DNA from: Escherichia coli
GTDB taxonomy: Bacteria; Pseudomonadota; Gammaproteobacteria; Enterobacterales; Enterobacteriaceae
Assembly (NCBI RefSeq): GCF_003334385.1
Contig: NZ_QOWN01000041.1
Reading direction: 5' to 3' (one strand)
DNA length: 38,687 bases
In this document: positions 1,848 through 20,300 of the stretch, piece after piece
Numbering within the stretch: position 1 is the first letter of the stretch
How the letters are laid out: every line of letters starts with the position of its first letter
The notes under the pieces: model-generated
Told to the model about the DNA's origin: nothing
Database searches by the model: none
Seen by the model: only the letters and a program-made list of their open reading frames with translations
Position numbers and translations under genes: made by a program

Positions 1848-1923
1848 GTGCTTGCTGTCGTATTGACTTAACGGGGATAAGTACGAGAATGAGCGCACAT
1901 CTGTTTACCGGAAACCAGCACAT

Positions 1924-3243
1924 ATGGATATCTGCTCCCGAAACAAGAAATTAACGATTAGAAGACCAGCGATACTAGTTGCACTGGCACTTTTACTGTG
2001 TAGTTGTAAAAGCACGCCTCCAGAGTCCATGGTGACACCACCAGCAGGTTCAAAGCCACCAGCCACGACGCAACAATCGTCACAACCGATGCGTGGCATC
2101 TGGCTGGCCACGGTTTCTCGGCTCGACTGGCCACCGGTTTCCTCGGTTAACATTAGTAACCCCACCAGCCGGGCCCGTGTACAACAACAGGCGATGATCG
2201 ACAAACTGGATCATCTGCAACGTCTCGGCATAAACACGGTCTTTTTCCAGGTCAAGCCGGACGGTACCGCCCTGTGGCCATCGAAAATTTTGCCGTGGTC
2301 CGATCTTATGACCGGTAAGATTGGTGAAAATCCGGGTTACGATCCGCTGCAATTTATGCTCGACGAAGCCCACAAGCGTGGGATGAAAGTACACGCCTGG
2401 TTTAACCCCTATCGCGTATCGGTTAATACGAAGCCCGGTACTATCAGGGAACTGAATAGCACTCTGTCTCAACAACCGGCGAGCGTCTATGTGCAACACC
2501 GCGACTGGATCAGAACGTCTGGCGATCGCTTTGTCCTCGACCCGGGCATCCCTGAGGTTCAGGACTGGATCACATCAATAGTCGCAGAAGTGGTTTCCCG
2601 CTATCCCGTAGATGGCGTGCAGTTTGACGACTATTTCTATACGGAGTCACCGGGTTCACGGCTAAATGATAACGAAACGTACCGTAAATACGGAGGCGCA
2701 TTTGCGTCAAAAGCAGACTGGCGGCGCAACAATACTCAGCAGTTAATTGCAAAGGTATCGCACACCATTAAAAGCATTAAGCCGGGAGTCGAATTTGGTG
2801 TTAGCCCGGCAGGCGTGTGGCGTAACCGATCACACGATCCGCTCGGTTCCGATACCCGAGGCGCGGCAGCCTATGACGAATCCTACGCTGACACCCGTCG
2901 ATGGGTGGAACAAGGATTGCTGGATTACATTGCTCCCCAAATTTACTGGCCGTTCTCACGGAGTGCCGCGCGTTATGACGTGTTGGCAAAATGGTGGGCG
3001 GATGTCGTTAAACCGACCAGGACCCGCCTGTATATCGGTATCGCCTTCTATAAAGTGGGTGAACCTTCAAAGATAGAGCCAGACTGGATGATTAACGGCG
3101 GCGTACCGGAACTGAAAAAGCAGCTCGATCTTAACGATGCTGTGCCCGAAATTAGCGGCACCATCTTGTTCCGTGAGGACTATCTGAATAAACCGCAGAC
3201 TCAACAAGCGGTCAGCTATCTGCAAAGTCGCTGGGGCAGTTAA
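1924..3243 (+). CDS. yddW: putative lipoprotein YddW (glycoside-hydrolase-like family)
   Basis: 439-aa ORF; N-terminal signal peptide with Cys-containing lipobox-like region (ALALLLCSCKS). Confidence 0.85.
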   Translation: MDICSRNKKLTIRRPAILVALALLLCSCKSTPPESMVTPPAGSKPPATTQQSSQPMRGIWLATVSRLDWPPVSSVNISNPTSRARVQQQAMIDKLDHLQRLGINTVFFQVKPDGTALWPSKILPWSDLMTGKIGENPGYDPLQFMLDEAHKRGMKVHAWFNPYRVSVNTKPGTIRELNSTLSQQPASVYVQHRDWIRTSGDRFVLDPGIPEVQDWITSIVAEVVSRYPVDGVQFDDYFYTESPGSRLNDNETYRKYGGAFASKADWRRNNTQQLIAKVSHTIKSIKPGVEFGVSPAGVWRNRSHDPLGSDTRGAAAYDESYADTRRWVEQGLLDYIAPQIYWPFSRSAARYDVLAKWWADVVKPTRTRLYIGIAFYKVGEPSKIEPDWMINGGVPELKKQLDLNDAVPEISGTILFREDYLNKPQTQQAVSYLQSRWGS

Positions 3244-3260
3244 ACTCCCATTCTTACTTT

Positions 3261-3295
3261 GTAACAAGCCGGTGCTTTACCCACCGGCTTGTTAC
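3261..3295 (+). terminator. 13-bp hairpin after yddW (no clear U-tract)
   Basis: gtaacaagccggt ... accggcttgttac inverted repeat just 3' of the yddW stop. Confidence 0.35.
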
Positions 3296-3410
3296 CCTCT
3301 TAAACTATCCCACTAATAATCATGCTTACTTAAGTCAAATTAACCACACTTAGTTAAACAGCCATAAATCCCTAATAAAAATGTATGAATATGAAAAACC
3401 ATACGATATT

Positions 3411-3446
3411 CGCTGTCACCGAAAAATAATTACGATGGGCTATACT
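3411..3446 (+). promoter_or_regulatory. candidate sigma-S-type promoter upstream of dosC (-10 cTATACT)
   Basis: gggCTATACTct at 3439-3446 resembles a sigma-S -10 with a -13 C; no good -35; would give a ~160-nt leader. Confidence 0.25.
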
Positions 3447-3606
3447 CTTCTGAAGAACAGTAGCGTAGATTGAAACTGTCCTAAATCGCTTATTTCTTTT
3501 CAGTATATCTTCATATTTCAGGAGAATATGGTGCAGTTAGTCGATCTCGCACGTTGCGTTTCATTTTGATTCCGTCTGATTTCCCAGCCTTATAAGGGTG
3601 TGAATT

Positions 3607-4989
3607 ATGGAGATGTATTTTAAAAGAATGAAAGATGAGTGGACCGGACTTGTCGAACAGGCAGATCCGCCCATTCGTGCTAAAGCCGCGGAAATTGCCG
3701 TTGCGCATGCTCATTATCTGAGTATCGAGTTTTATCGAATTGTCCGCATCGACCCGCATGCCGAAGAATTCTTGAGTAATGAACAAGTTGAGCGGCAGTT
3801 GAAGAGTGCGATGGAACGCTGGATTATTAACGTGCTTTCTGCCCAGGTTGACGATGTCGAAAGGCTAATACAAATCCAGCATACCGTCGCGGAAGTGCAT
3901 GCCCGCATAGGAATTCCGGTAGAAATTGTCGAGATGGGGTTTCGGGTGCTGAAAAAAATCCTCTATCCGGTGATCTTCTCTTCGGATTATTCCGCCGCAG
4001 AAAAACTTCAGGTCTACCATTTCTCGATTAACAGTATTGATATCGCGATGGAAGTGATGACTCGCGCGTTTACCTTTAGTGACAGTAGTGCCTCAAAGGA
4101 AGATGAAAACTATCGTATCTTCTCGTTACTGGAAAACGCCGAAGAAGAAAAAGAACGGCAAATAGCCTCAATACTTTCATGGGAAATAGATATTATCTAT
4201 AAAATCCTGCTGGATTCTGATTTAGGCAGTAGTTTGCCTTTAAGCCAGGCTGATTTTGGCCTGTGGTTTAACCATAAAGGTCGACATTATTTTAGTGGTA
4301 TTGCCGAAGTAGGCCATATCTCCCGTCTGATTCAGGATTTCGACGGTATTTTCAATCAAACCATGCGTAACACCAGAAATTTGAATAACAGAAGTCTGCG
4401 GGTGAAATTTTTATTACAGATAAGAAATACCGTATCGCAAATTATTACCTTGCTGCGTGAATTGTTTGAAGAAGTATCGCGCCACGAAGTCGGTATGGAT
4501 GTACTGACGAAATTACTTAACCGCCGTTTCCTACCGACTATCTTCAAACGCGAAATTGCCCATGCCAACCGGACCGGTACACCGCTGTCAGTGCTGATTA
4601 TTGACGTTGATAAATTCAAAGAGATCAATGATACGTGGGGCCATAACACTGGTGATGAAATTCTGCGTAAAGTCTCTCAGGCCTTTTATGACAACGTCCG
4701 CAGTAGTGATTATGTTTTCCGCTACGGGGGCGATGAATTTATCATTGTTTTGACTGAAGCTTCTGAAAACGAAACGTTACGTACCGCAGAACGTATTCGC
4801 AGTCGGGTGGAGAAAACCAAACTGAAAGCCGCAAACGGCGAAGATATTGCCCTCTCACTTTCCATCGGTGCCGCCATGTTTAATGGTCATCCTGACTATG
4901 AGCGCCTCATTCAAATAGCCGATGAAGCTCTGTATATCGCCAAAAGACGAGGTAGAAACCGTGTTGAACTCTGGAAAGCCAGTCTTTAG
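3607..4989 (+). CDS. dosC: globin-coupled diguanylate cyclase (O2-sensing GGDEF protein)
   Basis: 460-aa ORF; C-terminal GGDEF domain with RYGGDEF motif; ends ...RGRNRVELWKASL; RBS before the ATG. Confidence 0.92.
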   Translation: MEMYFKRMKDEWTGLVEQADPPIRAKAAEIAVAHAHYLSIEFYRIVRIDPHAEEFLSNEQVERQLKSAMERWIINVLSAQVDDVERLIQIQHTVAEVHARIGIPVEIVEMGFRVLKKILYPVIFSSDYSAAEKLQVYHFSINSIDIAMEVMTRAFTFSDSSASKEDENYRIFSLLENAEEEKERQIASILSWEIDIIYKILLDSDLGSSLPLSQADFGLWFNHKGRHYFSGIAEVGHISRLIQDFDGIFNQTMRNTRNLNNRSLRVKFLLQIRNTVSQIITLLRELFEEVSRHEVGMDVLTKLLNRRFLPTIFKREIAHANRTGTPLSVLIIDVDKFKEINDTWGHNTGDEILRKVSQAFYDNVRSSDYVFRYGGDEFIIVLTEASENETLRTAERIRSRVEKTKLKAANGEDIALSLSIGAAMFNGHPDYERLIQIADEALYIAKRRGRNRVELWKASL

Positions 4990-5013
4990 ATGCGCCAGGA
5001 TGCAGAGGTAATC

Positions 5014-5163
5014 ATGAAGCTAACCGATGCGGATAATGCCGCCGATGGCATTTTTTTCCCCGCCCTTGAGCAAAATATGATGTTTACGATGCGTATCGCC
5101 CACAACAAGCACAGGCGATGTTGTGGCAAGCCTGCCCAGACCCGCAATATGTTGTTGATGTGA
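5014..5163 (+). pseudogene. dosP: dosP 5' remnant: first 23 codons of dosP, then out-of-frame read into ddpX sequence (49-codon ORF)
   Basis: RBS gaggt plus ATG 25 nt after the dosC stop; MKLTDADNAADGIFFPALEQNMM matches the DosP N-terminus as recalled; from codon 24 the nucleotides are ddpX sequence in a different frame; stop at 5161-5163. Confidence 0.7.
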
Positions 5164-5468
5164 CGGTCGGTTCTAATCACAGCCGTGGCACGGCGATCGA
5201 CCTGACGCTTCGTGATGAGCACGGGAACATCCTCGATATGGGCGCAGGGTTCGATGAAATGCACGAGCGCTCCCATGCCTATCACCCTTCCGTCCCGCCC
5301 GCCGCTCAGCGCAATCGGCTGTTGCTGAATGCGATAATGACTGGTGGCGGTTTTGTCGGTATCTCCAGCGAATGGTGGCACTTCGAATTACCCCAGGCAG
5401 CGAGTTACCCTCTGCTCGCTGATCAATTCTCTTGTTTTATATCCCCTGGCACACAGCACGTCAGTTAA
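5085..5468 (+). pseudogene. ddpX: ddpX 3' remnant (D-Ala-D-Ala dipeptidase, VanX family) lacking about the first 60-75 codons
   Basis: ddpX-frame translation YDAYRPQQAQAMLWQACPDPQYVVDVTVGSNHSRGTAIDL...WWHFELPQ...; an in-frame TGA at 5067-5069 sits upstream and there is no start codon or RBS for a full-length product. Confidence 0.75.
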
Positions 5469-5481
5469 TCAGGAAACTGTC

Positions 5482-7032
5482 ATGAAGAGATCGATATCGT
5501 TTCGTCCCACATTGCTCGCGCTCGTCCTTGCCACAAATTTCCCGGTTGCGCACGCCGCCGTACCAAAAGATATGCTGGTGATTGGTAAGGCCGCCGATCC
5601 ACAAACCCTCGACCCGGCGGTAACAATAGATAATAACGACTGGACAGTGACCTACCCGTCTTATCAGCGGCTGGTTCAGTACAAAACGGACGGTGATAAA
5701 GGCTCAACCGACGTTGAAGGCGATCTGGCAAGTAGCTGGAAAGCGTCTGACGATCAAAAAGAGTGGACGTTCACCCTGAAAGATAATGCTAAATTTGCCG
5801 ATGGCACACCTGTCACTGCCGAAGCAGTAAAACTTTCTTTTGAGCGGCTACTAAAAATCGGCCAGGGGCCAGCAGAAGCATTTCCCAAAGATTTAAAGAT
5901 TGATGCTCCCGACGAACATACGGTGAAGTTTACCCTTAGCCAACCATTCGCACCGTTCCTCTACACGCTGGCGAATGACGGTGCATCCATTATCAATCCG
6001 GCGGTCTTAAAGGAACATGCAGCGGATGATGCTCGCGGCTTCCTCGCGCAAAATACCGCCGGTTCCGGACCATTTATGCTGAAAAGCTGGCAAAAAGGTC
6101 AGCAATTAGTTCTGGTGCCAAATCCGCATTACCTAGGCAATAAACCGAACTTCAAACGGGTATCGGTAAAAATTATTGGTGAAAGTGCCTCCCGTCGCCT
6201 GCAGCTCTCCCGTGGCGACATTGACATTGCCGATGCGCTGCCGGTGGATCAACTCAACGCCCTGAAGCAGGAAAATAAAGTCAATGTGGCAGAGTATCCG
6301 TCACTGCGCGTTACCTATCTGTATCTGAATAACAGCAAAGCGCCTCTTAATCAGGCGGATCTGCGTCGGGCCATTTCCTGGTCTACCGATTATCAGGGCA
6401 TGGTTAACGGCATTCTGAGTGGTAACGGAAAACAGATGCGCGGCCCGATTCCGGAAGGCATGTGGGGCTACGATGCGACGGCAATGCAATACAACCATGA
6501 CGAAACGAAAGCCAAAGCCGAATGGGATAAAGTGACGAGCAAACCCACCAGCCTGACGTTTCTCTACTCCGATAACGATCCGAACTGGGAGCCTATTGCT
6601 CTGGCGACACAATCCAGTCTCAACAAGCTGGGCATCATTGTGAAGCTGGAAAAGCTGGCGAACGCCACCATGCGCGACAGAGTGGGTAAAGGTGATTACG
6701 ACATTGCGATTGGCAACTGGAGTCCGGATTTTGCCGACCCGTATATGTTTATGAATTACTGGTTTGAGTCAGACAAAAAAGGTCTGCCGGGTAACCGCTC
6801 GTTCTATGAAAACAGTGAGGTCGATAAGTTACTGCGCAATGCGCTTGCGACCACCGACCAGACGCAGCGTACCCGGGACTACCAGCAGGCACAGAAAATC
6901 GTCATTGATGACGCTGCTTATGTGTACCTGTTCCAGAAAAACTACCAACTGGCGATGAACAAAGAGGTGAAAGGCTTTGTGTTCAATCCCATGCTGGAAC
7001 AGGTCTTCAATATCAATACCATGAGTAAATAA
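5482..7032 (+). CDS. ddpA: periplasmic D,D-dipeptide-binding protein (ABC transporter substrate-binding)
   Basis: 516-aa product from ATG 5482 (RBS aggaaa), with signal peptide MKRSISFRPTLLALVLATNFPVAHA; the ORF-track start at 5344 is an upstream in-frame extension. Confidence 0.92.
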   Translation: MKRSISFRPTLLALVLATNFPVAHAAVPKDMLVIGKAADPQTLDPAVTIDNNDWTVTYPSYQRLVQYKTDGDKGSTDVEGDLASSWKASDDQKEWTFTLKDNAKFADGTPVTAEAVKLSFERLLKIGQGPAEAFPKDLKIDAPDEHTVKFTLSQPFAPFLYTLANDGASIINPAVLKEHAADDARGFLAQNTAGSGPFMLKSWQKGQQLVLVPNPHYLGNKPNFKRVSVKIIGESASRRLQLSRGDIDIADALPVDQLNALKQENKVNVAEYPSLRVTYLYLNNSKAPLNQADLRRAISWSTDYQGMVNGILSGNGKQMRGPIPEGMWGYDATAMQYNHDETKAKAEWDKVTSKPTSLTFLYSDNDPNWEPIALATQSSLNKLGIIVKLEKLANATMRDRVGKGDYDIAIGNWSPDFADPYMFMNYWFESDKKGLPGNRSFYENSEVDKLLRNALATTDQTQRTRDYQQAQKIVIDDAAYVYLFQKNYQLAMNKEVKGFVFNPMLEQVFNINTMSK

Positions 7033-7033
7033 C

Positions 7034-8056
7034 GTGACCTTCTGGAGTATTTTACGCCAACGCTGCTGGGGGCTGGTGCTCGTGGTGGCGGGCGTCTGCG
7101 TGATTACGTTTATTATCTCGCATCTGATCCCTGGTGATCCGGCGCGGTTACTGGCGGGTGACCGCGCCAGCGATGCTATCGTGGAAAATATTCGCCAGCA
7201 ACTGGGACTGGACCAGCCACTGTATGTACAGTTTTACCGCTACGTCAGCGACCTGTTTCATGGTGACCTGGGAACATCCATTCGTACCGGGCGTCCGGTG
7301 CTGGAAGAGTTGCGTATATTTTTCCCGGCGACGCTGGAGCTGGCTTTTGGTGCCCTGCTGCTGGCACTCCTGATTGGCATCCCGCTGGGCATACTCTCTG
7401 CAGTCTGGCGAAATCGCTGGCTGGATCATCTGGTGCGAATAATGGCCATTACCGGAATCTCCACACCTGCGTTCTGGCTTGGGCTGGGCGTCATTGTGCT
7501 GTTTTATGGTCATCTGCAAATTCTTCCCGGCGGCGGAAGGCTTGATGACTGGCTGGATCCACCAACGCACGTTACCGGCTTTTATCTGCTCGATGCGCTG
7601 CTTGAAGGCAACGGTGAAGTCTTCTTCAATGCGTTGCAACATCTCATCTTACCGGCATTAACGCTGGCGTTCGTTCACCTGGGAATTGTCGCTCGCCAGA
7701 TCCGCTCAGCGATGCTGGAACAATTGAGTGAAGACTACATTCGTACCGCCCGGGCCAGCGGCTTGCCCGGCTGGTATATCGTTTTATGTTATGCGCTACC
7801 CAATGCGTTGATCCCATCGATTACCGTATTGGGTTTGGCGCTGGGCGATTTGTTGTATGGCGCAGTGCTCACCGAAACCGTTTTTGCCTGGCCCGGAATG
7901 GGTGCATGGGTAGTAACATCAATACAGGCGCTCGACTTCCCGGCAGTGATGGGCTTTGCCGTCGTGGTTTCATTTGCTTATGTGCTGGTCAACCTGGTGG
8001 TGGATTTGCTCTATTTGTGGATTGATCCGCGTATCGGACGTGGAGGTGGTGAATGA
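7034..8056 (+). CDS. ddpB: D,D-dipeptide ABC transporter permease
   Basis: 340-aa membrane ORF with GTG start abutting the ddpA stop; DppB/OppB-like permease. Confidence 0.9.
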   Translation: MTFWSILRQRCWGLVLVVAGVCVITFIISHLIPGDPARLLAGDRASDAIVENIRQQLGLDQPLYVQFYRYVSDLFHGDLGTSIRTGRPVLEELRIFFPATLELAFGALLLALLIGIPLGILSAVWRNRWLDHLVRIMAITGISTPAFWLGLGVIVLFYGHLQILPGGGRLDDWLDPPTHVTGFYLLDALLEGNGEVFFNALQHLILPALTLAFVHLGIVARQIRSAMLEQLSEDYIRTARASGLPGWYIVLCYALPNALIPSITVLGLALGDLLYGAVLTETVFAWPGMGAWVVTSIQALDFPAVMGFAVVVSFAYVLVNLVVDLLYLWIDPRIGRGGGE

Positions 8057-8949
8057 TGCTAAGCGAGGAAACGTCCGCCGTACGCCCACAAAAACAAACG
8101 CGATTTAACGGTGCAAAACTGGTATGGATGCTGAAAGGCAGTCCGCTCACCGTGACCAGCGCAGTCATCATTGTATTAATGCTATTGATGATGATTTTTT
8201 CACCGTGGCTGGCGACGCATGATCCCAACGCCATTGATTTAACCGCCCGCCTTTTGCCGCCTTCTGCGGCGCACTGGTTTGGCACCGATGAAGTGGGACG
8301 CGATCTGTTTAGCCGCGTACTGGTCGGCAGTCAGCAATCAATTCTCGCCGGATTAGTCGTGGTTGCCATTGCGGGTATGATTGGTTCGCTACTCGGATGT
8401 CTATCCGGTGTGCTTGGTGGACGCGCAGACGCCATCATCATGCGCATCATGGACATTATGCTGTCGATTCCTTCGTTGGTACTGACAATGGCACTGGCTG
8501 CCGCTCTCGGGCCGAGTTTGTTTAACGCCATGCTGGCTATTGCTATTGTGCGAATTCCCTTTTATGTGCGCCTGGCGCGGGGGCAAGCATTAGTTGTACG
8601 CCAGTATACCTATGTTCAGGCGGCGAAAACCTTTGGCGCGTCTCGTTGGCATCTGATCAACTGGCATATTTTACGTAACTCCCTACCGCCGCTGATCGTG
8701 CAGGCATCGCTGGATATCGGTAGCGCGATTTTAATGGCCGCCACGTTGGGATTTATTGGCCTGGGTGCTCAACAACCGAGTGCTGAATGGGGCGCGATGG
8801 TAGCAAATGGTCGCAACTATGTACTCGATCAGTGGTGGTATTGCGCATTTCCGGGGGCAGCGATTTTGCTTACCGCCGTCGGGTTTAATCTCTTTGGTGA
8901 TGGTATTCGCGATCTGCTTGACCCGAAAGCAGGAGGAAAGCAGTCATGA
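8053..8949 (+). CDS. ddpC: D,D-dipeptide ABC transporter permease
   Basis: 298-aa membrane ORF overlapping ddpB by 4 nt; DppC-like. Confidence 0.9.
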   Translation: MMLSEETSAVRPQKQTRFNGAKLVWMLKGSPLTVTSAVIIVLMLLMMIFSPWLATHDPNAIDLTARLLPPSAAHWFGTDEVGRDLFSRVLVGSQQSILAGLVVVAIAGMIGSLLGCLSGVLGGRADAIIMRIMDIMLSIPSLVLTMALAAALGPSLFNAMLAIAIVRIPFYVRLARGQALVVRQYTYVQAAKTFGASRWHLINWHILRNSLPPLIVQASLDIGSAILMAATLGFIGLGAQQPSAEWGAMVANGRNYVLDQWWYCAFPGAAILLTAVGFNLFGDGIRDLLDPKAGGKQS

Positions 8950-9932
8950 CCCAACCCGTTCTGGACATTCAACAACTGCATTTGAGTTTCCCCGGTTTTA
9001 ACGGTGATGTTCACGCGCTCAACAATGTGTCCTTGCAGATTAACCGCGGTGAAATTGTCGGTCTGGTGGGAGAATCCGGCTCAGGTAAATCAGTCACCGC
9101 AATGCTGATTATGCGTCTGCTACCGACGGGCAGTTATTGCGTACATCGGGGGCAGATTTCCCTGCTGGGAGAAGATGTTCTTAACGCGCGGGAAAAACAG
9201 CTTCGTCAGTGGCGCGGCGCACGAGTGGCGATGATCTTTCAGGAACCGATGACCGCCCTCAATCCGACACGTCGAATAGGTCTTCAGATGATGGACGTGA
9301 TCCGCCATCATCAACCAATAAGTCGTCGGGAAGCCAGAGCTAAAGCGATTGACCTGCTGGAAGAGATGCAAATCCCGGATGCCGTGGAAGTTATGTCGCG
9401 CTATCCGTTTGAGCTTTCAGGTGGTATGCGCCAGCGGGTAATGATTGCGCTGGCATTCTCCTGCGAGCCGCAATTGATTATTGCCGACGAACCGACTACG
9501 GCGCTGGACGTCACGGTGCAGTTGCAGGTACTGCGTTTGCTTAAACATAAAGCCCGCGCCAGTGGAACTGCGGTTCTGTTCATCAGCCATGATATGGCCG
9601 TGGTGTCGCAACTGTGCGATAGCGTTTACGTGATGTATGCCGGAAGCGTAATTGAAAGCGGCGTGACGGCAGACGTTATCCATCATCCCCGGCATCCGTA
9701 TACCATTGGTTTGCTGCAATGCGCACCAGAACATGGAGTACCACGCCAGCTATTACCCGCCATTCCAGGGACGGTACCAAACCTCACCCATTTGCCTGAC
9801 GGCTGCGCTTTTCGCGATCGTTGCTATGCGGCAGGTGCACAATGTGAAAACGTCCCGGCGCTGACAGCGTGTGGTGACAACAACCAGCGCTGTGCCTGTT
9901 GGTATCCGCAGCAGGAGGTTATAAGTGTCTGA
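8946..9932 (+). CDS. ddpD: D,D-dipeptide ABC transporter ATP-binding protein
   Basis: 328-aa ORF; Walker A GESGSGKS, signature LSGGMRQR, Walker B IIADEPT. Confidence 0.9.
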   Translation: MTQPVLDIQQLHLSFPGFNGDVHALNNVSLQINRGEIVGLVGESGSGKSVTAMLIMRLLPTGSYCVHRGQISLLGEDVLNAREKQLRQWRGARVAMIFQEPMTALNPTRRIGLQMMDVIRHHQPISRREARAKAIDLLEEMQIPDAVEVMSRYPFELSGGMRQRVMIALAFSCEPQLIIADEPTTALDVTVQLQVLRLLKHKARASGTAVLFISHDMAVVSQLCDSVYVMYAGSVIESGVTADVIHHPRHPYTIGLLQCAPEHGVPRQLLPAIPGTVPNLTHLPDGCAFRDRCYAAGAQCENVPALTACGDNNQRCACWYPQQEVISV

Positions 9933-10851
9933 CACGTTATTAACGTTACGCGACGTCCATATCAATTTCCCGGCCCGTAAAAACTGGCTTGGTAAAACTA
10001 CGGAACATGTTCATGCCATTAATGGTATTGATTTACAGATCCGCCGTGGTGAAACCTTAGGGATCGTCGGCGAGTCAGGCTGCGGCAAAAGCACCCTCGC
10101 ACAGCTTTTAATGGGTATGCTGCAACCGAGCCACGGGCAGTACATCCGTTCTGGCTCACAACGCATTATGCAGATGGTGTTTCAGGACCCGCTCTCTTCG
10201 CTTAATCCGCGCTTACCGGTGTGGCGCATCATCACAGAACCGCTCTGGATAGCTAAGCGTAGTAGTGAACAACAGCGGCGAGCGTTGGCAGAGGAGTTGG
10301 CTGTGCAGGTGGGTATTCGTCCGGAGTATCTCGACCGCCTGCCTCATGCGTTCTCCGGCGGGCAGCGGCAACGTATCGCCATTGCCAGAGCACTCTCTTC
10401 GCAGCCTGACGTGATTGTGCTTGATGAGCCAACCTCTGCGCTGGATATCTCCGTTCAGGCGCAGATCCTCAATTTACTGGTAACGCTACAGGAAAATCAC
10501 GGGCTGACCTATGTGCTGATTTCACACAATGTCTCGGTGATACGTCATATGAGCGATCGGGTGGCGGTGATGTATCTCGGGCAGATTGTAGAACTGGGCG
10601 ACGCGCAGCAGGTGCTGACGGCACCTGCACATCCATACACCCGATTATTGCTGGATTCCCTCCCCGCCATTGATAAACCGCTGGAGGAAGAATGGGCATT
10701 ACGTAAAACGGATCTGCCGGGAAACCGCACGTTGCCGCAAGGCTGTTTTTTCTACGAACGTTGCCCGCTGGCAACCCACGGATGTGAAGTCCGGCAATCA
10801 TTAGCAATAAGGGAGGACGGACGTGAGCTCCGGTGCTGGCGGGCGCTGTAG
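9925..10851 (+). CDS. ddpF: D,D-dipeptide ABC transporter ATP-binding protein
   Basis: 308-aa ORF, GTG start; Walker A GESGCGKST, signature FSGGQRQR, Walker B LDEPTSALD. Confidence 0.9.
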   Translation: MSDTLLTLRDVHINFPARKNWLGKTTEHVHAINGIDLQIRRGETLGIVGESGCGKSTLAQLLMGMLQPSHGQYIRSGSQRIMQMVFQDPLSSLNPRLPVWRIITEPLWIAKRSSEQQRRALAEELAVQVGIRPEYLDRLPHAFSGGQRQRIAIARALSSQPDVIVLDEPTSALDISVQAQILNLLVTLQENHGLTYVLISHNVSVIRHMSDRVAVMYLGQIVELGDAQQVLTAPAHPYTRLLLDSLPAIDKPLEEEWALRKTDLPGNRTLPQGCFFYERCPLATHGCEVRQSLAIREDGRELRCWRAL

Positions 10852-10861
10852 AGATGCTAAC

Positions 10862-10900
10862 AACGCATCAGGCATTCACGCGCCTGACGCGTCATCCGGC
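10862..10900. repeat. REP-like palindromic element between the convergent ddpF and osmC stops
   Basis: gcatcaggcattcacgcgcctgacgcgtcatccggca resembles the REP consensus (gccggatg...cctgatgc). Confidence 0.4.
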
Positions 10901-10906
10901 AATGCT

Positions 10907-11338
10907 TTACGATTTCAACTGGTAATCCAGCGTAATTTCCGCTTTCAGTACCTGAGAGACCGGGCATCCTGCTTTTGCTTTCTGGATTATGCCGTCAAAG
11001 GTAGAGGCATCAATACCCGGCACCGCAACTTCACTCTTCAGTGCGATTTTCGTAATCGCAAAACCGGCATCCACTTTATCCAGCGACACATCGGCGGTGG
11101 TATCAATCGATGTTGGCGTGAATCCCGCTTCCCCCAGCATTAATGAAAGCGCCATTGAGAAACATGCGGCATGCGCTGCGCCAATCAGTTCTTCAGGGTT
11201 GGTTCCTTTTTCGCCTTCAAAACGCGTGTTAAATCCATACGGCTGTTGGTTCAGCACGCCACTCTCGGTGGATACTGTTCCCTTCCCGCGTTTGATATCG
11301 CCTTCCCAGTGTGCCTGACCTTTCTTATGGATTGTCAT
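10907..11338 (-). CDS. osmC: osmotically inducible peroxiredoxin OsmC
   Basis: 143-aa ORF MTIHKKGQAHWEGDIKRGKG...; RBS aggaga; OsmC/Ohr fold signature. Confidence 0.93.
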   Translation of the reverse strand: MTIHKKGQAHWEGDIKRGKGTVSTESGVLNQQPYGFNTRFEGEKGTNPEELIGAAHAACFSMALSLMLGEAGFTPTSIDTTADVSLDKVDAGFAITKIALKSEVAVPGIDASTFDGIIQKAKAGCPVSQVLKAEITLDYQLKS

Positions 11339-11359
11339 TGTTGCTCTCCTGTGGGCTTA

Positions 11360-11420
11360 AAAAGGAAATTATAGACTACGTGAGAAACAGCACGAGGATA
11401 AGCAGGATATTCCGAATAAA
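11360..11420 (-). promoter_or_regulatory. osmC promoter region: sigma-S-like -10 (cTATAAT on the minus strand) and putative RcsB box
   Basis: Minus-strand agtcTATAATtt around 11365-11376; ggataagcaggatattccgaat at 11394-11417 resembles an RcsB box; assignment rests on recalled osmC regulation. Confidence 0.35.
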
Positions 11421-11682
11421 ATCCGGCGAAAATATTACTTCTGCACTTAAATTAAATTCCCACAATAGATTACCGGGAATATATAACCCAAAAGATATTG
11501 TATCAATATTAATCGGATCATACCAATCACAATCCCTATGAATATCATGGTGTTAAAATATAAAAATCATCAACCAGGACTAATCTTAACAACGAAGCGG
11601 CAAATATTTGCCATGCTGAATGTGCTTTATAAATCTGCGATCCGTAGCAGACACCATAAATACACAGACACGGAGAATCACT

Positions 11683-11898
11683 ATGTTTACTTATTATCAG
11701 GCAGAAAATTCAACAGCAGAACCCGCTCTGGTTAATGCCATTGAGCAAGGCCTTCGGGCACAGCATGGTGTTGTCACTGAAGATGACATTCTCATGGAGC
11801 TGACCAAATGGGTTGAAGCTTCTGATAACGACATCCTCAGTGATATCTACCAGCAAACGATCAATTATGTGGTCAGTGGCCAGCACCCTACGCTTTAA
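11683..11898 (+). CDS. bdm: biofilm-dependent modulation protein
   Basis: 71-aa product MFTYYQAENSTAEPALVNAIEQGL... from the internal ATG at 11683; the ORF-track start at 11620 is an upstream extension. Confidence 0.85.
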   Translation: MFTYYQAENSTAEPALVNAIEQGLRAQHGVVTEDDILMELTKWVEASDNDILSDIYQQTINYVVSGQHPTL

Positions 11899-17336: not shown

Positions 17337-20300
17337 TTACGCCTGCTCGATGTTGACTAAGAACGCTTTATATTCCGGCGTTTGCGAGTTTGCATCACCG
17401 ACATTCGGCGTCAGAGTGTTAGCGATATAACCTTTACGCGCGACACCCTCAAAGCCCCAGTGGATTGGAATACCCACCGTTTCAACCTGCTGACCATTTA
17501 CATTCAGCGGTTTCAGACGACGCGTTACCACAGCCACCGCGCGGATAAAGCCACGCTTGCTGGAGACAGTGACACGATCGCCATTATTAATGCCTTTCGC
17601 CGCCGCCAGCGTTTCGCTGATTTCCACAAACTGTTCCGGCTGAGCAATTGCGTTGAGCAATGCGTGCTTGGTCCAGGTGTGGAAGTGCTCGGTCAGACGA
17701 TAGGTCGTACCCACATACGGGAACTGCTCTTTTTTACCCATCCGCAGCGCGTCTTGTTCATACAGACGAACAACCGGGTTAGACACCACGTTCGGATGCA
17801 GCGGGTTAGTGCCCAGCGGCGTTTCAATCGGCTCGTAGTGTTCCGGGAACGGACCTTCCGCCATTTTGTTGATGGCAAACAGGCGTCCCATCCCTTCCGG
17901 CTGCATGATAAACGGCCCGGTTGGCGTACCCGGTGCGGCATTGCCGAAGTCAGGAATATCGTTACCCGTCCACTTGCTGCCGTTCCACTGGATCAGCATC
18001 CGTTTCGGATCCCACGGTTTACCGTTGATATCCGCCGAAGCACGGTTGTACAGCACGCGACGGTTGAGCGGCCACGCCCAGGCCCATCCCAGCGTATTCC
18101 CCAGACCGGACGGGTCGGAGTTATCGCGGTTAGCCATCTGGTTGCCCTGCTCTGTCCAGCTACCGGTGTAGATCCAGCAAGAAGATGCGGTTGTACCGTC
18201 ATCACGCAGATGCGCAAAGCTACTCAGCAACTGACCTTTCTTCGCAATAAGCACGCCATTAGCGTCATAGAGATCTTCCAGCGCGTAGCCGTTGTTCTCT
18301 TTAGCCACTTCGTCAGATTGCGGTTCGTGCGGCTGCTTGTAGTTCCAGCTCATCTTCATCAGCGGTTCTACGCCTTTACCACCTTCGGACTGGTACAGCT
18401 CGCGCAGATGATGGTAGATACCCGCCAGAATTTCACCGTCGTTACGCGCTTCGCCCGGCGCGTCCTGACCTTTCCAGTGCCACTGCAACCAGCGACCGGA
18501 GTTAGCGATAGAACCATCTTCTTCAGCAAAGCAGGTCGAAGGCAGACGGAATACTTCAGTCTGAATAGACGCCGGATCGACATCGTTCGACTCACCGTGG
18601 TTCTGCCAGAAGGTAGAGGTTTCAGTCACCAGCGGATCGATAACCACCATGTACTTCAGCTTGCTCAGGCAGCTCACCACTTTGTTTTTGTCCGGGAAGG
18701 ACGCAACCGGGTTAAAGCCCTGGCAGAAATAACCGGTGACTTTGCCTTCATCCATCATGTTGAAATACTTGATGACGTCGTAGGTCTGGTCCCACTTCGG
18801 CAGCCAGTCATAGCCCCAGTTGTTCTCTTTCTGCGCGGCATCGCCATAGAAAGATTTCATCAGGCTAACGAAGAACTTCGGATAGTTGCTCCAGTAGTTC
18901 ACCTGATCAGCCAGCGTCGCTTTCGGCGTGTTCGCTTCCAGATACGACTGCAAATCAACCTGTTTTTCTGACGGCAGCGTCAGATAACCTGGCAGGCTGG
19001 TAGAGAGCAGGCCTAAGTCAGTCAAGCCCTGAATGTTGGAGTGACCACGCAATGCGTTCACGCCGCCACCGGCCATACCCATGTTACCGAGCAGCAACTG
19101 GATCATCGCCATAGTACGGATGTTCTGCGCACCCACAGTGTGCTGCGTCCAGCCCAGCGCGTACAGGAAGGTGGTTGTGCGATCCGGTGCGCTGGTGGAG
19201 GCCAGCACTTCACACACTTTCAGGAAGTCGGCTTTTGGCGTACCGCAGATGTTTTCAACGACGTCCGGCGTGTAGCGGGAAACGTGCTCTTTCAGCAGGT
19301 TCCACACACAGCGCGGATGAGTCAGTGTTTCATCGCGTTTCGCATAGCCGTTTTCATCGAACTGATAGTTCCAGGACGATTTATCGTATTGACGTTTTTC
19401 AGCGTCGTAGCCGCTGAACAGACCGTCTTCGAAAGCAAAATCATCACGCACCAGCAGGCTGGCGTTGGTGTAATGCTTAACGTATTCGGCGTTGATTTTG
19501 TTGTTTTCGATCAGGTAGCGCAAAACGCCAGACAGGAACGTAATGTCCGTACCGGAACGAATAGGCGCGTAAATATCCGCCACAGAAGCGGTACGCGTAA
19601 AACGGGGATCGACAACGATCAAGGTTGCGTCGTTGTTGTTTTTCGCTTCCATCGCCCAGCGGAAACCGACGGGATGCGCTTCAGCAGCGTTACCGCCCAT
19701 CACCATCACGACGTTAGCGTTTTTGATATCCACCCAGTGGTTGGTCATCGCACCGCGACCAAATGTTGGAGCAAGACTTGCTACCGTTGGTCCGTGTCAG
19801 ACGCGCGCCTGGTTGTCTACCGCCAGCATCCCGAGGGAGCGGGCAAATTTCTGGGTCAGCATCCCGGTTTCGTTGCTGGCACCGGAGGCACACAGCATAC
19901 CGGTAGAAAGCCAACGGTTTACCGTTACGCCCTGCTCGTTCTTTTCAATAAAGTTGGCGTCACGGTCAGCTTTCATCAGCTTCGCAATACGGGAGAATGC
20001 TTCTTCCCAGCTAATGCGCTGCCATTTGTCAGAACCTGGCGCACGATATTCCGGGTAGCGCAGACGGTTTTCACTGTTGACGTAATCCAGCAAACCGGCC
20101 CCTTTCGGGCACAGCGCACCACGGCTTACCGGATGATCCGGGTCACCTTCAATGTGATAAATCGCTTCTCTGGCGTTTTTTGCGCCATCACCCAGGCTAT
20201 ACATCAATAGCCCGCAACCTACGGAACAGTATGTGCAGGTGTTACGGATCTCTTTAGCGCGTAATAATTTGTAGTTTCGCGCCTGAGCCAGTGCTTGCTT

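Follow-up and report, generated by a model that had tools for sequence, protein, structure and literature searches.

Introduction

In Escherichia coli K-12, the genes dosC and dosP (dgcO and pdeO) are followed on the same strand by the ddpXABCDF operon. DosC is a globin-coupled diguanylate cyclase and DosP is the partner phosphodiesterase for cyclic di-GMP (c-di-GMP), while ddpX codes for a D-Ala-D-Ala dipeptidase and ddpABCDF code for an ABC importer. Deletions can place distal genes under the control of an upstream promoter, as in the classical fusions of the trp-lac type, for which the fused transcript was demonstrated genetically. Here we describe the dosCP-ddp locus in a 38,687-nt stretch of DNA from an E. 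coli isolate (contig NZ_QOWN01000041.1 of assembly GCF_003334385.1; the whole stretch is referred to as the window), in which a deletion left only 492 nt between dosC and ddpA. An earlier description of this sequence (the original prediction) had proposed that DosC now acts without an opposing phosphodiesterase and that ddpABCDF are read from the dosC promoter.

The genes dgcO and pdeO are under RpoS control, and DgcO is the most highly expressed diguanylate cyclase in stationary phase (PMC5635695). No other phosphodiesterase is as abundant as DosP in stationary phase; the enzyme is activated by oxygen, with a kcat of 3.2 s-1 under aerobic versus 0.4 s-1 under anaerobic conditions and a response between about 75 and 256 uM O2 (PMC11543664). 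The active state of DosC is disputed, since the unliganded protein was reported to make c-di-GMP (PMC11543664), whereas binding of O2 was reported to activate DgcO (PMC8846402). The ddpX promoter binds NtrC and the RpoN holoenzyme, and nitrogen depletion induces ddpX by a factor of 104 but ddpF by a factor of only 2.2 (PMC8743547). Expression of ddpXA was found to be RpoS-dependent in strain EDL933 (PMC2907692). Genomic SELEX (systematic evolution of ligands by exponential enrichment) detected in vitro an "internal promoter" for the RpoD holoenzyme between ddpA and ddpB (PMC3946193). The genes for GGDEF and EAL proteins are polymorphic in E. coli through gene gain and loss, as far as the work of Povolotsky and Hengge (2016) is represented in a later article that cites it (PMC5635171).

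Results

A blunt deletion removes most of dosP and the start of ddpX

Alignment to a K-12-type locus (L002) revealed that 2,784 bp are missing from the window. The sequence elements around the junction are:
4990-5082, + strand: dosP remnant (alignment to L002)
5082-5083, no strand: deletion junction (alignments to K-12-type and sister genomes; identical in the Logan contigs L012 and L013)
5083-5468, + strand: ddpX remnant, nt 197-582, codons 67-193 (alignment)
5014-5163, + strand: fusion open reading frame (ORF) of 49 amino acids, or 57 amino acids if it starts at 4990, with the stop codon TGA at 5161-5163 (translation)

Window positions 1867-5082 correspond to L002 1-3216 and positions 5083-11700 to L002 6001-12618, with three mismatches in total. 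The deleted segment, L002 3217-6000, runs from dosP codon 24 to ddpX nt 196, and dosP codon 23 is joined out of frame to ddpX nt 197. The junction is blunt, as neither flank has bases in common with the opposite end of the sequence that was lost. Since the comparison of window and L002 revealed no microhomology or repeats at either breakpoint, we rejected a mechanism based on slippage or repeats for this allele.

The part of dosP that remains comprises 23 codons (69 nt) from the annotated ATG at 5014, or 31 codons (93 nt) from the historical ATG at 4990, which directly adjoins the TAG stop codon of dosC. An N-terminal extension of DosP (MRQDAEVI) is encoded from the historical ATG (Gilles-Gonzalez laboratory; PMC11543664). 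A full-length dosP gene (799-807 amino acids with haem-PAS, PAS, GGDEF-like and EAL domains) is absent downstream of dosC. The fusion ORF consists of the DosP N-terminus followed by ddpX sequence read out of frame. The ddpX remnant has neither its own start codon nor a ribosome-binding site; its longest in-frame ORF (5118-5468, 116 amino acids) begins at Met78 and lacks the first 77 residues, and a Peptidase_M15 match was found on this product. The full-length VanX-type dipeptidase DdpX (193 amino acids) is not encoded, as codons 1-66 and the ribosome-binding site are deleted. The deletion destroys DosP and DdpX. The claim that dosP is gone held with regard to function, leaving DosC without its partner, but 23-31 codons are still present.

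The stop codon of the fusion ORF overlaps an in-frame GTG of ddpX in the sequence GTGA (5160-5163), an arrangement typical for translational coupling.

The deletion allele is found in one clone

An exact look-up of the 49-amino-acid fusion peptide retrieved only three Logan contigs, which derive from about seven sequencing runs. Two contigs, L012 (ERR1948963; contig in five samples) and L013 (SRR3823653), carry the identical junction and show 100% identity to the window over 11,116 and 7,111 nt, including the junction. Compared to the window, the sister contigs L017 and L020 show only one or two substitutions, and L017 also one indel; both retain the 2,784 bp with the full dosC-dosP-ddpX-ddpA arrangement. 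The sources of ERR10358432 and ERR10686880 are examples of undeleted sisters. The identical Logan junctions and the near-identical sisters with a full locus indicate that the deletion is a genuine and recent event in a sub-clone and not an assembly artefact. Endpoints that are out of frame, scar-free and asymmetric, and a background with non-K-12 single-nucleotide polymorphisms (SNPs), argue against engineering.

The same junction was not found among 5,426 complete E. coli genomes by megablast of the junction region, and the exact 30-nt junction gave no match in GTDB representative genomes or in JGI metagenome contigs.

dosC and the five permease genes are intact

The genes on both sides of the junction are:
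3607-4989, + strand: dosC (dgcO/yddV), globin-coupled diguanylate cyclase, 460 amino acids, intact (ORF; comparison with K-12)
5482-7032, + strand: ddpA, periplasmic substrate-binding protein, 516 amino acids, intact (ORF; own AGGA ribosome-binding site)
7034-8056, + strand: ddpB, of the permease/ATPase gene set (ORF)
8053-8949, + strand: ddpC, of the same set (ORF)
8946-9932, + strand: ddpD, of the same set (ORF)
9925-10851, + strand: ddpF, of the same set (ORF)

DosC shows no amino acid difference to the K-12 protein, and dosC has one synonymous SNP at 4629. The identical product matches the Pfam domains Protoglobin, DosC_2nd and GGDEF. All features expected for a globin-coupled sensor diguanylate cyclase are present: the sensor globin with the haem residues F42, Y43 and H98 (proximal His98, distal Tyr43), the middle domain, the GGDEF motif at amino acids 374-378 (nt 4726-4740), and an RxxD site, the I-site RSSD at amino acids 365-368.

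The proteins DdpB, DdpC, DdpD and DdpF are identical to those of K-12, and their Pfam families were found on the identical products. All five importer ORFs are open, and DdpA differs from K-12 by P218L only. We considered whether P218L was a private damaging mutation and rejected this, since the same protein occurs in numerous strains whose backgrounds are diverged and whose locus is intact; the exchange is a standing polymorphism. Strains with the L218 variant of DdpA mostly show the full dosC-dosP-ddpX-ddpA arrangement. The coordinates and the gene content given before for dosC and ddpABCDF agreed with our ORF analysis and the K-12 comparison, and the GGDEF motif of DosC is intact as stated.

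The deletion removed the control signals between dosP and ddpX

In the K-12-type reference, the dosP stop codon is followed after 13 nt by a GC-rich hairpin and its T-tract (GCCCGCACTCGCGGGT TTTCATTT, -10.9 kcal/mol). This hairpin (L002 5560-5575) lies inside the deleted segment, and no terminator-like hairpin closing a dosCP unit is left. Its loss strengthens the idea of read-through from dosC.

The whole 257-bp intergenic region between dosP and ddpX was also lost, including the ddpX promoter. The deleted spacer contains the sigma54 -24/-12 element ATGGCATGAGATCTGCA (L002 5745), about 34 nt upstream of ddpX. This element is the sigma54 site OS16 from chromatin immunoprecipitation sequencing (ChIP-seq) and was assigned to ddpX by Bonocora et al. 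(PMC4591121). A scan for GG-N10-GC with up to three mismatches recovered the K-12 site but gave no match in window positions 3200-7100, and the -24/-12 element of an NtrC-controlled ddpXABCDF operon is missing there. The assumption that the promoter region next to ddpX had likely been deleted was therefore correct. As a firm prediction from the sequence, ddpABCDF should have lost NtrC-dependent induction.

Read-through from dosC is the most plausible source of ddpA transcripts

The elements that would influence transcription from dosC into ddpA are:
3440-3460, + strand: candidate dosC promoter with the sigmaS-type -10 sequence C-TATACT at 3440-3446 and a start at about 3460 (-10 scan)
5035-5052, + strand: terminator-like hairpin AAUGCC-GCCGAU-GGCAUU followed by a U-run (consensus scan of the window and K-12)
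5164-5481, + strand: 318-nt stretch, probably untranslated (composition scan)
5398-5421, + strand: stable hairpin CAGCGAGU...GCUCGCUG followed by AUCAAUUCUCUUGUUUUAU, near the ddpX 3' end (folding)

The region upstream of dosC is identical to K-12. We placed the transcription start at about 3460 on the basis of the 147-nt 5' untranslated region of dosC that was measured in BL21(DE3) (PMC5435950). The -10 sequence is located 7 nt further upstream than would be ideal for a start at 3460, and we infer a sigmaS-type promoter only as a candidate.

A promoter scan of positions 4990-5482 gave no sigma70-like promoter with at least 9 of 12 matches. A replacement sigma54 promoter or strong sigma70 promoter between dosC and ddpA was rejected, since the only hits were -10 sequences with 5 of 6 matches at 5032, 5076 and 5333, the last of which has TGC upstream. 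Because sigma70-like and sigma54-like promoters are lacking between the two genes, read-through from the dosC promoter appears as the most plausible remaining source of ddpA transcripts, and some transcription from the dosC promoter into ddpA would be the most likely outcome.

The path from dosC to ddpA contains possible obstacles, and attenuation of the read-through by intrinsic or Rho-dependent termination is plausible. The first hairpin, AATGCCGCCGATGGCATT followed by a T-run, has a stability of -6.4 kcal/mol. It belongs to the native sequence of dosP codons 8-13 (L002 3169-3186), is also present in K-12, and lies within the translated fusion ORF. As the dosP start is kept, this hairpin is still covered by ribosomes in the window allele. 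The second hairpin is more stable (-12.4 kcal/mol), but its U-rich tract begins only 5 nt later; because of this displacement it was missed by the consensus scan. It is translated in wild-type ddpX, probably untranslated in the window allele, and could act as a possible attenuator in the latter state. Both hairpins are weak or non-canonical, and terminator-like matches occurred roughly at chance frequency (16 versus 8.9 +/- 3.1 in shuffled sequences, over 8.2 kb).

The hairpin with its U7 run in dosP codons 8-13 was present in all strains examined. It could serve as a natural attenuator in the wild type and thereby determine the ratio of DosC to DosP, although such matches are found at chance frequency.

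Rho tends to use untranslated RNA that is rich in C and poor in G. Downstream of the fusion ORF, 78-nt windows of this composition (C/G 1.5-1.9) start at 5230-5270 (span 5230-5347) and at 5370-5410 (span 5370-5487). The stretch 5164-5481 is from its composition a candidate region for Rho-dependent polarity. A scan of the whole window against Rfam gave no known RNA element in the dosC-ddp region.

It had been claimed that no terminator exists between 4990 and 5482. A strong canonical one is indeed absent, but the two terminator-like hairpins are present. Likewise, the dosC promoter is still the most plausible source for transcription of ddpABCDF, but the hairpins and about 318 nt of probably untranslated RNA lie in its path.

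Even in the wild type, the distal ddp genes seem to be only weakly coupled to the first promoter, as suggested by the small response of ddpF compared to ddpX and by the reported internal promoter. As ddpXA are already RpoS-dependent, control by the dosC promoter would change the regulatory logic less than the term "rewiring" suggests.

Loss of DosP should matter most at high oxygen

E. coli has many phosphodiesterases besides DosP. Since DosP is switched on by oxygen and mostly off at low oxygen (PMC11543664), its loss should matter most at high oxygen levels or upon re-oxygenation. The expectation of higher c-di-GMP under low oxygen was therefore poorly aimed. Under either model of DosC activation, the difference between mutant and wild type is smallest when DosP is already off.

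The phenotypes published for knockouts are mild. Deletion of pdeO did not alter swimming or swarming (PMC12153312), and deletion of dosP resulted in filamentous growth but no gross biofilm defect (PMC11543664). Deletion of dgcO lowers csgBA expression (PMC12713406), which indicates that DosC feeds into curli control. A local effect on the module of DosC, PNPase and RNase E (PMC5635695) would be plausible.

The dosCP-ddp locus is damaged repeatedly in E. coli

The strains FDAARGOS_1248 and 200112 share an independent internal deletion of about 2.28 kb in dosP. The deletion ends have a 14-nt overlap (L001 3494-3507), which suggests a repeat-mediated event.

The complete genome of strain SCU-104 (L014, NZ_CP053284.1 2461627-2483009) has the same dosC SNP at 4629 and matches the window with 100% identity on three flanking segments. 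Three separate lesions are present in its locus: a 239-bp deletion upstream of dosC, which corresponds to window positions 3340-3578 and covers the candidate promoter, a frameshift in dosP, and a 2,050-bp deletion in ddpA-ddpB that corresponds to window positions 5745-7794. These lesions suggest that selection on the entire dosCP-ddp cluster is relaxed or negative in this lineage.

Loss of ddpX was also recurrent. Five independent lesions were found among L004, L005, L006, L010 and L011, namely a 4-bp insertion, the stop mutations Q76* and Y70*, a 235-bp deletion, which removes the ribosome-binding site and the 5' end, and a 10-bp deletion. The latter (nt 194-203) overlaps the right breakpoint of the window deletion (nt 196/197) and results in the same out-of-frame tail. 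A total of 106 blocks of the assembly collection contain the same 116-amino-acid C-terminal ddpX ORF as the window. In L007-L009, ddpX seemed to contain 155-nt "insertions", but these were N-filled scaffold gaps and were rejected. The statement that the permease is left without DdpX is right in so far as ddpX is destroyed, but the situation is not special, since ddpX was lost independently elsewhere with ddpABCDF kept.

The dosP segment was found with at least 80% coverage in 5,305 of the 5,426 complete genomes and was unmatched in 79. Full-length dosC was present in 4,294 genomes and missing in about 1,100. DosP without DosC is the common natural asymmetry, in agreement with the literature on the loss of GGDEF and EAL genes (PMC5635171), while the DosC-only state is rare. 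The window allele itself is new with respect to the collection of complete genomes, but its kind is already known.

In about 1,100 of the 5,426 genomes only a 3' fragment of dosC is left, which is annotated as "diguanylate cyclase domain-containing protein"; dosP is retained in most genomes. A plasmid-borne gene annotated as dosP in an IS26 unit (PMC12089661, J Med Microbiol 2025) is irrelevant to the chromosomal dosCP-ddp locus and was not considered further.

Neighbouring genes and other elements

The locus is flanked by:
258-1793, + strand: gadC (ORF listing)
1924-3243, + strand: digH/yddW (ORF listing)
minus strand, convergent to the ddp genes: osmC (ORF listing)

A perfect 13-bp inverted repeat (TAACAAGCCGGTG...CACCGGCTTGTTA) is located at 3262-3294, just 3' of digH. 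This repeat probably serves as the terminator of digH and would shield dosC from transcription that enters from upstream. The only Rfam match in the window was SECIS_3 at 19744-19802 on the - strand (84.3 bits), which is the known selenocysteine insertion element of fdnG.

Discussion

We concluded that the lesion is best explained by a blunt loss of 2,784 bp from the chromosome of a phylogroup-A-like E. coli, which occurred recently and in this clone only, and that it represents one more loss-of-function allele at a repeatedly decaying locus and not an adaptive rewiring. We assign a probability of about 0.6 to this explanation as a whole, including the following consequences. DosC would be made without its partner phosphodiesterase, and the module of DosC, DosP and PNPase would lose its oxygen-activated sink, with the largest effect at high oxygen or upon re-oxygenation. 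The ddpABCDF genes would be freed from control by nitrogen limitation through NtrC, and the only sources left for their transcription would be read-through from the presumably sigmaS-dependent dosC promoter, with its start at about 3460, and weak internal promoters. A certain degree of read-through is likely, although it is probably weakened by the two hairpins and by the approximately 318 nt of probably untranslated, Rho-exposed RNA after 5163.

Several points weigh against this explanation. Both hairpins are native coding sequence, from dosP codons 8-13 and from the ddpX 3' end, and they may not terminate transcription; the one at 5035-5052 is transcribed through in the wild type, as dosP is expressed there. 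The fusion ORF holds ribosomes on the RNA up to 5163. Re-initiation at GTGA in the ddpX frame could then protect the RNA from Rho as far as 13 nt upstream of ddpA and might yield a 102-amino-acid C-terminal fragment of DdpX. Given that several sequencing runs contain the clone, the allele at least has no strongly deleterious effect, and selection for it may have occurred.

The alternative that survives best, although we consider it doubtful on balance, is pure silencing and decay. Here transcription of dosC would end by Rho polarity after 5163 or at 5398-5421, and ddpABCDF, deprived of their only strong promoter, would be effectively silent and heading to pseudogenes. The C-rich and G-poor untranslated RNA and the hairpin of -12.4 kcal/mol with its U-rich tail, which is no longer translated, are consistent with such an outcome, as is the decay already seen around it: the close relative SCU-104 has lost ddpA-ddpB and the region upstream of dosC, and loss of ddpX is recurrent elsewhere. 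However, the five ddp ORFs are intact and identical to K-12 except for one common polymorphism, and an internal promoter was reported in vitro with the RpoD holoenzyme at ddpA/ddpB (PMC3946193). In addition, re-initiation at GTGA could shield the RNA, and the strong hairpin has a U-tract that does not directly follow its stem.

Full rewiring, in which ddpABCDF are efficiently co-transcribed with dosC as one sigmaS-dependent operon, c-di-GMP is measurably raised with effects on biofilm or curli, especially at low oxygen, and D-Ala-D-Ala is imported but cannot be hydrolysed, is in our view unlikely. The genetic layout would allow it, as the genes are on the same strand, the native terminator and promoter are both deleted, ddpA has kept its own ribosome-binding site, and DosC is intact and, in stationary phase, normally expressed at a high level. 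The decrease in csgBA expression upon deletion of dgcO (PMC12713406) also fits a role of DosC in curli formation. Against efficient co-transcription stand the hairpins at 5035-5052 and 5398-5421 and the Rho-exposed untranslated stretch, and the distal ddp genes respond weakly even to their native promoter. With regard to c-di-GMP, DosP is mostly off at low oxygen, where its absence would thus have little effect. E. coli also possesses many other phosphodiesterases, and deletion of pdeO had no effect on motility and caused no gross biofilm defect.

An adaptive origin of the allele is still less probable, and we regard it as quite improbable. It would imply a working sigmaS-driven dosC-ddpABCDF operon for stationary-phase uptake of dipeptides uncoupled from nitrogen, together with a c-di-GMP module of DosC and PNPase locked "on", and the hits in dosP, ddpX and ddpAB in relatives such as SCU-104 would then reflect selection on the locus in the gut.

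That the junction is an assembly error or an engineered knockout can practically be dismissed: it is missing from the 5,426 complete genomes, the GTDB representatives and the JGI metagenome contigs and is blunt without microhomology, but it is shared, together with its flanks, by three Logan contigs that were assembled independently and stem from about seven runs, no repeat at the endpoints could collapse an assembly, no scar sequence is present, the out-of-frame and asymmetric endpoints are unlike designed deletions, and the non-K-12 SNPs of the background are common to natural isolates.

Should the read-through be true, the locus would be a small natural case in which control of a transporter operon was swapped from nitrogen limitation by NtrC and sigma54 to stationary phase by sigmaS. 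The clone would then also provide a natural DosC-only strain with near-isogenic sisters that have both DosC and DosP, and these strains could be used to test in vivo in which oxygen state DosC is active and how local the signalling of DosC and DosP is. As it stands, the allele mainly documents that genes of the dosCP-ddp locus are frequently lost in E. coli, and it opens no new question.

In comparison to K-12, the window has the same gene order and strand, a nucleotide identity of 99.97% on both sides of the junction, and identical DosC, DdpB, DdpC, DdpD and DdpF proteins. Missing from the window are dosP codons 24-799, the hairpin after dosP, the 257-bp intergenic region that carries the NtrC/sigma54 promoter, and ddpX codons 1-66.

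A comparable natural allele is that of FDAARGOS_1248 and 200112, in which DosP is lost, DosC is kept, the post-dosP hairpin is removed, and dosC abuts the ddp genes. That allele retains a 102-amino-acid PAS ORF, the sigma54 site and an intact ddpX, whereas in the window a blunt deletion extends over the promoter and the ddpX 5' end as well. The ddpX pseudogene alleles resemble the window in keeping the permease genes without a functional dipeptidase, but they arose by point lesions or small indels, and most keep the native promoter and dosP.

With the polymorphism of GGDEF and EAL genes, as far as it is described in the citing article (PMC5635171), the window has in common the strain-specific loss of one partner of DosC/DosP by deletion, frameshift or stop codon. 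The DosC-only state of the window is the reverse of the common natural state. The mechanism proposed for the window is that of operon fusions generated by deletion, of the classical trp-lac type, in which loss of a terminator and of the downstream promoter puts distal genes on the same strand under an upstream promoter. In contrast to these fusions, in which the fused transcript was shown genetically, the fused transcript of the window allele is inferred, and two weak terminator-like hairpins and Rho-prone RNA remain between the joined genes.

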